A DNA stretch of 64,000 nucleotides from a virus (lineage: Duplodnaviria > Caudoviricetes): IMG/VR virus record IMGVR_UViG_3300031813_000669, positions 9,058-73,057 of that record. One strand, given 5' to 3'. The translations under genes were made by a program, and so were the position numbers. Positions 847 to 25,668 of this stretch are shown piece after piece. Each line of letters starts with the position of its first letter. The first letter of the stretch is position 1. A model generated the notes under the pieces. That model was not told the DNA's origin and did not search any database. It saw only the letters and a program-made list of their open reading frames with translations.

Positions 847-1031
847 TGAATAGTCACGATAAATTTGGTGTAATTTTATTCAGTTTGTTGATTGTTGGTG
901 TCACTATTTGTATTGTAACAGGAATATTGACAAACAGAGAAACCACTAAACAATATATTGAAAATGGTTATCAGGAATGTTGGCATCCTATTTCTGGTAC
1001 TAAGTGGCAGAAGGAGTGTCAAAAGTTATGA
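846..1031 (+). CDS. Small hypothetical membrane protein
   Basis: 61 aa with an N-terminal hydrophobic helix; coupled start. Confidence 0.7.
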   Translation: MNSHDKFGVILFSLLIVGVTICIVTGILTNRETTKQYIENGYQECWHPISGTKWQKECQKL

Positions 1032-1324
1032 GTAAAGTTACCGATACTCCAACATTTTCATATACTGGAAATACTACATTTACTTTTGCAGACGCTCAAG
1101 CAGTTTCATTTACAACACCTATTGGTGATCTTTACCTTTATGGTAAGGATAATAAGACCAAATATATGTATGTTCCGCAAGATGATATTACTGTTCTTGA
1201 GTTATCATTAATCATGAGATTGTTTATCTCTGCATTACTTGCGTCTAGGGGATATATTCATTATAATTATTGGGGATATGTAAAGGAACATAATCTTGAA
1301 AGACATTTTGTGGAGAAACTGTAA
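1028..1324 (+). CDS. Hypothetical protein
   Basis: Likely ATG at 1028 overlapping the previous stop (ATGA). Confidence 0.65.
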   Translation: MSKVTDTPTFSYTGNTTFTFADAQAVSFTTPIGDLYLYGKDNKTKYMYVPQDDITVLELSLIMRLFISALLASRGYIHYNYWGYVKEHNLERHFVEKL

Positions 1325-8975: not shown

Positions 8976-10060
8976 ATGGGTATAGAAGTTCCCGATTACG
9001 TTATATTTCAAGGCCGGTGGTTTTGTGAAGATGAAGTCACCGCCAATTATGTTCGATGGTCTGAATGGAAAAACATACCAGAATGGGAATATATTGAAAT
9101 GCGGGAACATATCAAGAAAGGTGCCAAGTACCAAATCCGGATATTGAAGCAAATTCATATTGAAGGATTTGGTGCTGGTGATATAGAATCGAATCCAAAC
9201 GTCTGGGTCAATCCTGGACTCTGATTTTTCATGGGTGGGGCTTGCCTTCCTGGCCGGTTGTGTTAGGATGGTCCCACAAATTGATGAGGAGGTTGTTATG
9301 AAGATGTTCGCATTACAGAATCGGGATGCTACTGAATTTTATTGGTCTACTGAATATGGTTGGACCGATATTGACCATGCTGATTTCTTTTTTGGTAATG
9401 AGCTAGATGAAACCTATTGTTTAGAACTCTTAGACAAGACTAAGGGTAAATGGGTTATCAATGAAGTTAAGTTGGATATTGCAGTATGATTTATTTGTTA
9501 GAAACTACAAAATGGTCTGATGATACCCCAAACCATATCTACACTTTTACTGACAAGAAAACGTCAAAAGTGTCCGGATACATACCAGCTGGTGGAAAGG
9601 ATATTGTTATGTTCAAAAAGCCTATGCCTTTTGATAAACGCAAAAGGACTTTCAAAGAAATCAAACTGGAGTAATCTATGCTTCTACTTGTCAAATTAAT
9701 AATCTATCTTATTTCTGCACATATATTTTATAATGCAGGATTCACTTCAGAAGGAAAACTTTTAGAATTTATTACTTTGATGAGTTGTATTTTATTAATG
9801 GATATATGTTCTTACTTTACAGCAAGACATACTATTATTAAGGAACTCTTTGAACAAGAAGAAGAATGATTAGCCAATTTTATAATTCCCTTATTGATCT
9901 CCAAGAATGTATTGAAACCCTAAAACAATCTGAATCCCTGTCTGATCTTGATGTGTCTGAACCGGAATTGAAGGCCATGAAGTTCCTGTATCGTTCCTGT
10001 GGTGAATTCCGGGCCATCTATGAGAACCTAGAGGATGATGACGGCTACCGATCCCATTGA
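8976..10060 (+). CDS. Run of five small hypothetical proteins (8976..9224, about 9298..9489, 9486..9674, 9678..9869, 9866..10060)
   Basis: Tightly packed ORFs; promoter TTGCCT-16-TAGGAT at 9242-9269. Confidence 0.6.
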
Positions 10061-23937: not shown

Positions 23938-24069
23938 ATGAAAGTAAAAGAACTCATACAAAAATATTTCGAAGCAATCTTCAACAAAGACTCCCAAAAG
24001 GAAGAAAAGTTGTATAAGAAGATTACCAAGAAGAGTCTGAAAGGTAAAAAGACTCAAAGAATTCGTTGA
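23938..24069 (+). CDS. Small basic hypothetical protein (43 aa), probably leaderless
   Basis: MKVKELIQKYFEAIFNKDSQKEEKLYKKITKKSLKGKKTQRIR; ATG 6 nt after the -10; TGA overlaps the next ATG. Confidence 0.55.
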   Translation: MKVKELIQKYFEAIFNKDSQKEEKLYKKITKKSLKGKKTQRIR

Positions 24070-24713
24070 TGTTGTTGAAAATAATGATACTGGAAATAAA
24101 TGAAAAAGATTTAACCGATATCAAAAGAAAAATTAAATATCTGGTTAATCTCAAAGAAAACTTAATGAAAGAACAAGATATTAGGCTTGTTCAGGATGAT
24201 AAACTTGAGAAAAAACTTAGAGGTAAGGAAAAAGATTACCAATCAATATTGAGATTATATGAATCTAATATTAGTCAAATTTATGAGAAAAAAGATATAA
24301 ATTCTTTTTATGTTTATTTTCATTGTGATCCCAATATACCATTGAATATTAATAAAAATGCAAAAAATTTATTTGCAGCTTCTATAGGATTAACTCATCA
24401 ACCTTTCTATGTTGGTAAAGGAACAGGTGATAGATTCAATGATACTAACAGGAATGATAGTTACGCAAAGAAAAAACAACAGATAAAACAGTCCGACAAA
24501 GAAATTATTATAGTTAAATGGAAAGAGAATTTAACTGAAGATGAATCTTTTTCATATGAATCAAAATTTATTGATATTTTTGGATTAATTTCGTTCAGTC
24601 AATATAATTGGTTGGTCAATTTAGACGAAGGTAAAGATAAAGAAAAAAGAAGAAATCTATATAAGAGAGGTTCAAAAAGAATTTTACTATCGAATAAAAT
24701 GATAGTTAATTAA
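24066..24713 (+). CDS. GIY-YIG-like endonuclease
   Basis: FYVYFHCDP...PFYVGKGTGDR, E..SFSYESKFI..FG, LVN. Confidence 0.8.
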   Translation: MMLLKIMILEINEKDLTDIKRKIKYLVNLKENLMKEQDIRLVQDDKLEKKLRGKEKDYQSILRLYESNISQIYEKKDINSFYVYFHCDPNIPLNINKNAKNLFAASIGLTHQPFYVGKGTGDRFNDTNRNDSYAKKKQQIKQSDKEIIIVKWKENLTEDESFSYESKFIDIFGLISFSQYNWLVNLDEGKDKEKRRNLYKRGSKRILLSNKMIVN

Positions 24714-24715
24714 TC

Positions 24716-24789
24716 TGCCACATATTTCTGTGGCAACTTTATAATGTAGTTGCAGGAAGACAGCGGGGCAGTACCGCTCCACTCCACCA
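24716..24789 (+). ncRNA. ssrA: Permuted tmRNA, acceptor (3') piece
   Basis: GAC-AGCGG-GGCAGTA-CCGCT T-arm, then CCACTCC-ACCA. The 5' boundary is approximate. Confidence 0.88.
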
Positions 24790-24800
24790 AAAGGACATTT

Positions 24801-24962
24801 ATGACAGATTTGGAAATAATAGAAGAAGTCAATCAATGGTTTAGTAAAAATCATCATATGTTCAAAACTGATGAATACTACGGGATTGATATTGTCTGTG
24901 AGTTGTATAAACTTGTCAATAAGTGTGCTTCTGATGGGGTGGAACCAGTATCGATTCGGTAA
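24801..24962 (+). CDS. 53-aa ORF in the tmRNA intervening segment
   Basis: AAGGA SD at 24791-24795, ATG at 24801; MTDLEIIEEVNQWFSKNHHMFKTDEYYGIDIVCELYKLVNKCASDGVEPVSIR. Confidence 0.55.
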   Translation: MTDLEIIEEVNQWFSKNHHMFKTDEYYGIDIVCELYKLVNKCASDGVEPVSIR

Positions 24963-25130
24963 TGAAGTTATAAGGGGATCGGCAAGAATCAGAAGCCGTT
25001 AGGATTGGGGTTACCCGGTCGAAGATGATAAATAAAAGTAATTGCAAACGATAGCGATTATTCTTACGCTCTTGCAGCGTAAGTGAGGTTTCGGTAGGTT
25101 GACCTTATCACAAGAATAACCTACCACTTT
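24936..25130 (+). ncRNA. ssrA: Permuted tmRNA, coding (5') piece with tag ORF 25044..25082
   Basis: GGGGTGG pairs with CCACTCC including G3.U70; pseudoknot CGGC/GCCG plus AATC/GATT; TAATT-GCA resume context; tag ANDSDYSYALAA-stop; second pseudoknot GTGAGG/CCTTAT plus GGTAGGTT/AACCTACC. The 3' end is approximate. Confidence 0.9.
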
Positions 25131-25180
25131 TATCAACAACAGAAGGTAACTACAAATTATTATTTGATTTTGACTCAATC

Positions 25181-25314: not shown

Positions 25315-25668
25315 ATGTATTCGAAACATCTAAAACCAAAACTTTTGTCATTAATTTTTCTGGCATTGTTATCAACAAACTTAATGGCACAAACTGGTAC
25401 AGCATCATGGTATGGACATCCACACCATGGTAAAAAAACTGCATCAGGTCAGATATATAATATGCATCATTTGACAGCTGCTCACCGGACAATTAAATTA
25501 GGATCTAAAGTAAAAGTAACCAATTTAAAGAATAAAAAGTCTGTGGTTGTTACAATCAATGATCGGGGACCTTTTGCAAAAGGTCGTATTATTGACCTTT
25601 CTCATGCAGCTAAAACTGCAATTGATATGGATGGTACTGCAAAAGTGAGTTTAGAAATTTTGGATTGA
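25315..25668 (+). CDS. RlpA-like double-psi beta-barrel lytic transglycosylase, exported
   Basis: GTASWYG...TASG..YNM..LTAAHRT; [18 protein letters not shown]; signal peptide. Confidence 0.9.

Follow-up and report, generated by a model that had tools for sequence, protein, structure and literature searches.

The stretch analysed here, referred to as the window, comprises 64,000 nt of a freshwater T4-like myovirus (IMG/VR record IMGVR_UViG_3300031813_000669, positions 9,058 to 73,057), the record itself being a 73-kb fragment with an estimated completeness of 44%. Genes for PhoH, a PD-(D/E)XK nuclease, gp33, gp59 and gp32 lie around a permuted tmRNA gene (24724-25082), which is matched by Rfam RF04321 (tmRNA_permuted) with 83.4 bits (GA 47, model positions 1-213) and by RF01849 with 60.7 bits (GA 50); the match is reproduced when the whole record is scanned. 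All features described below are on the + strand. The acceptor piece with the T-arm (24724..24789, from the RF04321 and RF01849 alignments and the sequence) ends in the acceptor 3' strand CCACTCC (24779-24785), the discriminator A (24786) and CCA (24787-24789), and the coding piece (24936..25082, from the Rfam alignment) opens with the acceptor 5' strand GGGGTGG (24936-24942). Together the two strands form an acceptor stem of 7 bp with G3:U70 as its third pair (G24938-U24783). The tag reading frame (25044-25082) encodes ANDSDYSYALAA followed by a stop, with an Ala resume codon and an ALAA end; the same ANDSDYSYALAA is reported by ARAGORN for the homologous gene of L234, of which the tag region is 100% identical to that of the window. 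ARAGORN also calls the homologous tmRNA gene on L242 but finds no tmRNA in the 64,000-nt window, despite an Rfam score far over threshold, and tmRNA genes with long coding spacers may escape detection.

Directly upstream lies a GIY-YIG-type homing-endonuclease-like gene (24066..24713; Pfam PF22945 LEM-3_GIY-YIG, E 7e-6, at 26.5 bits slightly under the 27-bit cut-off). A terminator-like hairpin (24716-24735) directly past its stop overlaps the 5' end of the Rfam tmRNA match and is aligned as a stem by the alpha_tmRNA model. Downstream, a hairpin with an 8-bp stem and a 16-nt loop followed by a T-run (25094..25133), found by eye, is a possible 3' end or terminator of the tmRNA transcript; a terminator scan with a loop limit of 8 nt does not report it. 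Between the tmRNA and gp33 the window encodes an RlpA-like DPBB protein (25315-25668; lytic transglycosylase fold) that has a signal-like segment at its N-terminus; the gene keeps its position in L234, L237 and L239. A phage SmpB was not found in the phage's own record or in two relatives (82% and 92% complete), blastn of the tmRNA locus against GenBank phages gave no match, and promoter matches in the locus were no more frequent than in shuffles.

Between the two tmRNA pieces, from the CCA to the 5' G of the acceptor stem, lies a 146-nt spacer (24790..24935). It opens with AAAGGACATTT, then ATG (24801-24803), and 45 codons run up to 24935, where RNase P is predicted to cut between 24935 and 24936. 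Given that the spacer has no stop, the frame extends 24 nt into the mature tmRNA, the first 27 nt of which (24936..24962) provide a tail of eight codons and TAA (24960-24962), for an ORF of 53 codons in total. An earlier note on this DNA had described this SD-led ORF and its stop within the coding piece, and all of its numbers agree with the sequence.

Permuted tmRNA genes are known from aquatic myophages, such as the OM43 phage Melnitz and SAR11 myophages (PMC9004378), and are covered by Rfam RF04321 (PMC11915505). The window shares with the Melnitz and SAR11 genes the order of acceptor piece, spacer and coding piece and a location just upstream of the region of gp33 (late-transcription coactivator). 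It differs from them in having a protein-coding spacer of 146 nt; neither of the two papers describes spacer ORFs (PMC9004378, PMC11915505).

Coding evidence and protein family of the spacer ORF

The sense ORF fills 135 of the 146 nt of a spacer with 30% GC, whereas the antisense strand reaches 66 nt and 5000 shuffles average 60 nt (p = 0.009 for the observed length). The same ORF was found on independent metagenomic contigs by identity look-up and a word-based search, and its six distinct nucleotide versions align without gaps. Their 22 variable sites fall 5/2/15 on the three codon positions (p = 9e-4), synonymous changes are in excess (p = 8e-7) and pairwise Nei-Gojobori dN/dS is 0.03-0.12, while additional contig variants at 24812, 24821 and 24896 are third-position synonymous in three of three cases. 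The earlier note had proposed aligning homologous phage ssrA loci, and this alignment bears out a conserved ORF, found in the same place in L246 and L370. The substitution pattern identifies the spacer ORF as a genuine protein-coding gene under purifying selection, with translation itself being predicted.

Conservation resides in the 45-codon core (24801..24935), as delimited by dN/dS, the profile family and AF2. A profile search (hmmsearch) of 1.84 billion representatives yields 26 related clusters at E <= 1e-3, of which four reach E <= 1e-10, with a best match of E = 1.3e-14 and coverage of the whole 45-aa core. The 26 proteins are 45-115 aa long and share the motif W-x3-N-x3-F-K-x-D-E-Y-Y-G-I-D-I ... 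L-V-K-x-C. AF2 with the family alignment returns a two-helix hairpin (pLDDT 88), and the protein, with 9 D+E versus 4 K+R, is predicted to be an acidic helix-loop-helix fold. The phage's own record holds one family copy. No Pfam family matches the spacer protein at E <= 0.1, and PHROGs, the ESM Atlas and Foldseek searches against PDB and BFVD give no usable match. Searching IMG/VR for relatives of the peptide found none, and tblastn and HMM searches of approximately 240 tmRNA loci added nothing to the known close relatives. In IMG/VR, a degenerate DNA pattern for DEYYGIDI had one match, by chance, in a large unrelated protein with no RNA gene near it, and L371 was likewise discarded as a chance motif match in an unrelated 236-aa frame.

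The family consists of phage small proteins that are usually encoded within or beside phage tmRNA or tRNA-like genes. In L246 (53% identity) and L370 (64%) the spacer of an Rfam-verified permuted tmRNA holds the ORF, which starts 10-11 nt past the CCA and meets the coding piece in frame 0, that is, at a codon-boundary junction, with no stop in the spacer. P0009, P0020 and P0023 are likewise spacer-embedded and stop-less, judging by residues that match the translated T-arm/CCA or tmRNA 5' end. Other members are found approximately 460 nt upstream of a permuted tmRNA (L247), between a tRNA-like gene and the tmRNA acceptor piece (L245), 18 nt after a T-arm+CCA end (L243), downstream of a GOLLD RNA (L244, member at 736-885, GOLLD RNA at 43-514 with 193.6 bits) and within a plain array of small genes (L248). 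The frequent location beside tmRNA, tRNA-like and GOLLD RNA genes hints at a role in RNA or translation biology.

L243:1-232 carries, upstream of the family member, two T-arm+CCA ends approximately 200 nt apart; no matching 5' acceptor strand was found downstream of them, and they are possibly tandem or degenerate tmRNA-like pieces. The GOLLD RNA of L244 holds a tRNA-like element, and a 60-aa ORF intervenes before the family member.

Free-standing copies were established from L243, L244, L247 and L248, and they stop 4-12 residues past the conserved Cys, whereas embedded members all continue C-x-S-D and then enter the tmRNA, with unconserved read-through tails of 8, 9, 12, 20, 21, 23 and 32 codons in the embedded relatives. 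L241 was dropped as proof of a free-standing copy, given that this 1.2 kb contig starts with an Illumina TruSeq adapter (1-47); other small genes follow the family member in the place of the tmRNA there, the first being a homologue of window 1004-1324, in an order that may be unreal.

The spacer helix and the ends of the gene

In the MFE pair list the two ends of the spacer pair with each other, and the gene is nested in the helix that closes the spacer. The 5' arm (24791..24812) holds the SD AAGGA (24792-24796), the AUG and codons 1-4, and the 3' arm (24908..24930) consists of codons 36-44, the last nine before an unpaired leader, CTGAT (24931-24935). The arms run on continuously from the acceptor stem as a predicted helix of approximately 21 bp, in which the AUG lies within a 13-bp run. 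The segment 24779-24945 folds at -51 kcal/mol, compared with -31 +/- 3.5 for shuffles (z = -5.7). By thermodynamic folding prediction, the start site would be buried in the folded precursor or the excised spacer, with unpaired probabilities of 0.01 for the AUG and 0.20 for the SD, and would be open on the nascent RNA before the 3' arm exists (0.76 and 0.68). The excised spacer, which the earlier note had taken for a ready-made mRNA, is thus predicted to be a poor one because its AUG and SD are buried in the fold. Retention of the SD, which that note had also suggested examining, is incomplete, as the L370 spacer begins AAAAAGCATTT and has no SD.

Sequence variation follows the same outline. 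All 5' arm columns (24791-24812) are invariant among five embedded variants, and synonymous changes in the embedded variants number 0 in codons 1-3 and 36-45 and 14 in codons 4-35. The sole change in an arm, C->T at 24928, replaces G-C by G-U pairing. The only arm mismatch is the G of the SD at 24794; in ORF-less relatives this position is a C and the stem pairs throughout. These relatives, 30 in number and found via gp59 (50-61% identity), carry at the same tmRNA site spacers of 59-87 nt without an ORF, with complementary end arms and then (C/A/T)TGAT right before GGGG. The arms of the window are homologous to those of the ORF-less spacers (for example, L214 and L224) and longer. Across 92 viral spacers (L001-L231) the arms average 10.8 pairs compared with 4.7 in controls, and TGAT directly precedes the tmRNA 5' GGGG in 78 of the 92. 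In the folding model the spacer helix stacks on the acceptor stem, and it probably guides processing. In the predicted fold the T at -1 also pairs with the discriminator A.

Spacer ORFs in other tmRNA genes

ORFs in long phage tmRNA spacers are general rather than a one-off. Among 128 distinct viral permuted-tmRNA spacers, the low-GC set comprises 25 spacers of at least 100 nt. The longest sense ORF averages 80% of the spacer in this set, compared with 45% for antisense ORFs and 43% for shuffles, and 19 of the 25 have a spacer-filling sense ORF at p <= 0.05. The ORFs belong to several unrelated families, usually start just past the 5' arm and mostly have a good SD. Where pairs could be compared in the families other than that of the window, they give a dN/dS of 0.2-0.5 or, at 53% protein identity, saturation of synonymous sites. 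All 15 ORF-bearing loci that were checked have a full-length Rfam tmRNA match. The spacers of 107 cellular alpha-type permuted tmRNAs are mostly < 50 nt, and the few cellular candidates with long spacers are GC-rich and show no sense-strand bias. Glutamine riboswitch aptamers adjoin two ORF-bearing permuted tmRNAs (L079:2150-2198 and L081:778-828), as reported for phage Melnitz.

For 22 other spacer ORFs the position of the stop could be compared: seven stop before or in the 3' arm, six at the conserved TGA at -4 that belongs to the TGAT, six at a conserved TAG/TAA at +10, and three are in frame 0 and run deeper. Hence 13 of the 22 stop within the spacer and nine within the mature tmRNA. The frame of an ORF determines its stop site, as both the TGA at -4 and the TAG/TAA at +10 come from the conserved flank, and the frames relative to the cut are spread about evenly among these families. 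One family shows both states, L009 stopping within the spacer and L010 and L082 reading through.

Protein-coding tmRNA spacers seem to be undescribed so far. Our literature search found no report of them, and the unusual spacer contents given in the 2025 tmRNA database paper are a tRNA-Ala gene and a repetitive element only (PMC11915505).

Translation of the spacer gene and alternative readings

We rank first, at a probability of roughly 55%, the reading in which the spacer gene is translated on the nascent precursor and terminates normally at TAA 24960; a designed non-stop circuit comes second. The tmRNA promoter would drive the spacer gene, and ribosomes would load only on the nascent precursor, during the approximately 120 nt of transcription before the 3' arm appears. 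Translation would then continue across the 3' arm and the acceptor 5' strand as far as TAA 24960, where termination would give a 53-aa product. Only after termination would the helix and the acceptor stem close and bury the start site, so that the two tmRNA pieces could be released by RNase P and 3' processing enzymes. The single precursor and its cut sites are taken over here by analogy with established tmRNA and tRNA processing. If processing got ahead of a ribosome, a non-stop complex would result and the product would be tagged, as a side reaction and not as the selected purpose. The variable tail of 8-32 residues fits a tail that is irrelevant; equally, it fits a tail that is never made because processing removes it. 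What counts against translation with normal termination is that embedded members all lack a stop in the spacer, whereas free-standing ones stop shortly after the Cys.

Long-range pairing is known to restrict translation to nascent RNA in the MS2 maturation gene and in the fold-back of hok mRNA. As in these systems, the start in the spacer is predicted to be open only until its downstream complement has been transcribed (0.76 versus 0.01). Unlike them, both being mRNAs, the closing helix in the window doubles as the processing helix of a stable RNA.

Why the gene is located in the spacer could be answered differently. It may be a passenger, that is, an accessory gene in an insertion-tolerant, well-transcribed helix loop that has spread by recombination and has no functional tie to the tmRNA. 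The tmRNA locus is indeed a mosaic, because the identities of spacer, acceptor piece, tag and flanks disagree: the spacer is 88-98% identical between phages that share only 67-85% identity in the flanking core genes, L234 matches the tag and 3' end at 100%, and the acceptor piece of the window, with the alpha-type T-loop GGGGCAGTACC, cannot be aligned with those of its relatives, which have the canonical GTTCGA T-loop. The acceptor piece has been replaced. Only in the window, L232 and L233 does the GIY-YIG-like gene immediately precede the tmRNA, in a comparison that included L234, L237, L239 and L242, and its position suggests homing-associated co-conversion. A passenger would also account for several unrelated ORF families in the same niche, for the 30 relatives with short ORF-less spacers and for family members in plain small-gene arrays (L244, L248). 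However, in most lineages examined the family is at or beside tmRNA or tRNA-like genes, as the window group, L246 and L370 carry it in the spacer and L245 and L247 a short way upstream of a tmRNA, and the spacer arrangement persists down to 47-64% protein identity. Conserved synteny could explain this proximity, and a functional link fits it too. We consider a mere passenger possible yet on the unlikely side; it is compatible with both nascent translation and the non-stop readings, and differs from the best explanation only on why the gene is there.

Protein genes are also known from other segments that are removed from stable RNAs. Self-splicing group I introns in tmRNA genes carry homing-endonuclease ORFs at a T-loop site (PMC11915505); as there, a protein gene lies within a segment removed from the tmRNA precursor, but the spacer gene comes without an intron or an endonuclease domain and the RNA ends are not re-joined. 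The intervening sequence (IVS) in the 23S rRNA of Coxiella burnetii contains an S23p ORF and is excised by RNase III, although the authors doubt that the ORF is translated (PMC4990558). Both cases have an ORF in a stem-closed segment that is cut from a stable RNA without re-ligation and leaves a fragmented functional RNA, but RNA and protein family are different, and the spacer gene is under clear purifying selection and overlaps the mature RNA. The search of Pfam at E <= 0.1 gave no match of the spacer protein to the S23p-like (IVS-protein) family.

A designed non-stop circuit, as the earlier note had in mind, would resemble E. coli arfA, which has a stop-less mRNA and is repressed by trans-translation (PMC10107115). 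The RNase P cut would serve to sever the ORF from its stop, and a 45-aa product from the non-stop mRNA would be tagged and degraded while trans-translation works and accumulate only when it is saturated or absent, so that the tmRNA gene would carry a sensor of its own activity. In arfA, the cut is made by RNase III. The likeness is that processing within a hairpin would remove the stop of an ORF, leaving the fate of the product to depend on tmRNA activity; the differences are that the cut would be made by RNase P where it matures the tmRNA itself, that the ORF, from its sequence, is inside the tmRNA gene, and that the acidic spacer protein is unrelated to ArfA. The earlier note knew of no described example; a published case of gene regulation by way of a non-stop mRNA is arfA.

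The geometry is as that note described: if RNase P cuts between 24935 and 24936, the processed mRNA would end inside the ORF, upstream of any stop. The sequence-verified embedded members all lack a spacer stop at 47-64% identity (window group, L246, L370), and the read-through sequences of P0009, P0020 and P0023 indicate the same, while free-standing homologues have ordinary stops. The unconserved tails, the nine other spacer ORFs with their stop in the mature tmRNA and the ALAA end of the phage tag also fit such a circuit. Against it, the AUG is predicted to be buried in the folded or excised RNA (unpaired 0.01), L370 lacks an SD and 13 of the 22 other spacer ORFs stop within the spacer. Where the non-stop state can be compared within a family it is not conserved, because L009 stops in the spacer and the related L010 and L082 do not. 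Common descent together with a constrained 3' arm accounts for frame 0, the stop site merely follows the frame via the conserved flank, and Pfam and fold searches show no similarity of the spacer protein to ArfA or any rescue factor. The earlier note had also stressed that the cut falls on a codon boundary after 45 codons and had proposed testing the frame relative to the cut. The boundary is there, but it has a one-in-three chance and is irrelevant to a non-stop mRNA, and the frames of other families are about even. Given that the stop follows the frame, that frames are even and that one family has both states, the codon boundary carries no weight and a non-stop design is not general. We therefore regard a designed circuit at this locus as improbable. 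More doubtful still is a wider version, in which phage tmRNA spacers are a general home for small genes, approximately 40% of which, those of this family included, lose their stop on maturation, trans-translation gates the products and ribosomes time maturation. If true, an ArfA-like sensor would be built into the tmRNA gene, and ribosome traffic through the spacer helix would time the maturation of the tmRNA.

That the ORF is untranslated, with open frame and conservation as by-products of a structured RNA (a long processing hairpin), is very improbable: the strong predicted structure (z -3.1 to -5.7) and the invariant spacer ends would fit, but RNA pairing predicts neither 15 of 22 third-position sites nor a dN/dS of 0.03-0.12, a codon-position pattern on which an open frame arising from a palindromic RNA was rejected, and homologues of 33-58% identity retain the protein motif in unrelated nucleotide contexts outside any tmRNA, where free-standing members fold unremarkably (z -0.5 to +0.7).

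Permuted tmRNA genes have been treated as pure RNA genes and their spacer as disposable. Here, a conserved protein gene occupies the spacer, overlaps the mature tmRNA and has its ends in common with the processing helix, and most long phage tmRNA spacers are also coding, their genes falling into several unrelated families. Such genes form a further class of hidden small phage genes, either masked as RNA by annotation pipelines or called with their context overlooked. The arrangement also provides a natural system of competition between translation and stable-RNA maturation on a single transcript, and offers a concrete and cheap test of whether phages couple protein fate to trans-translation.
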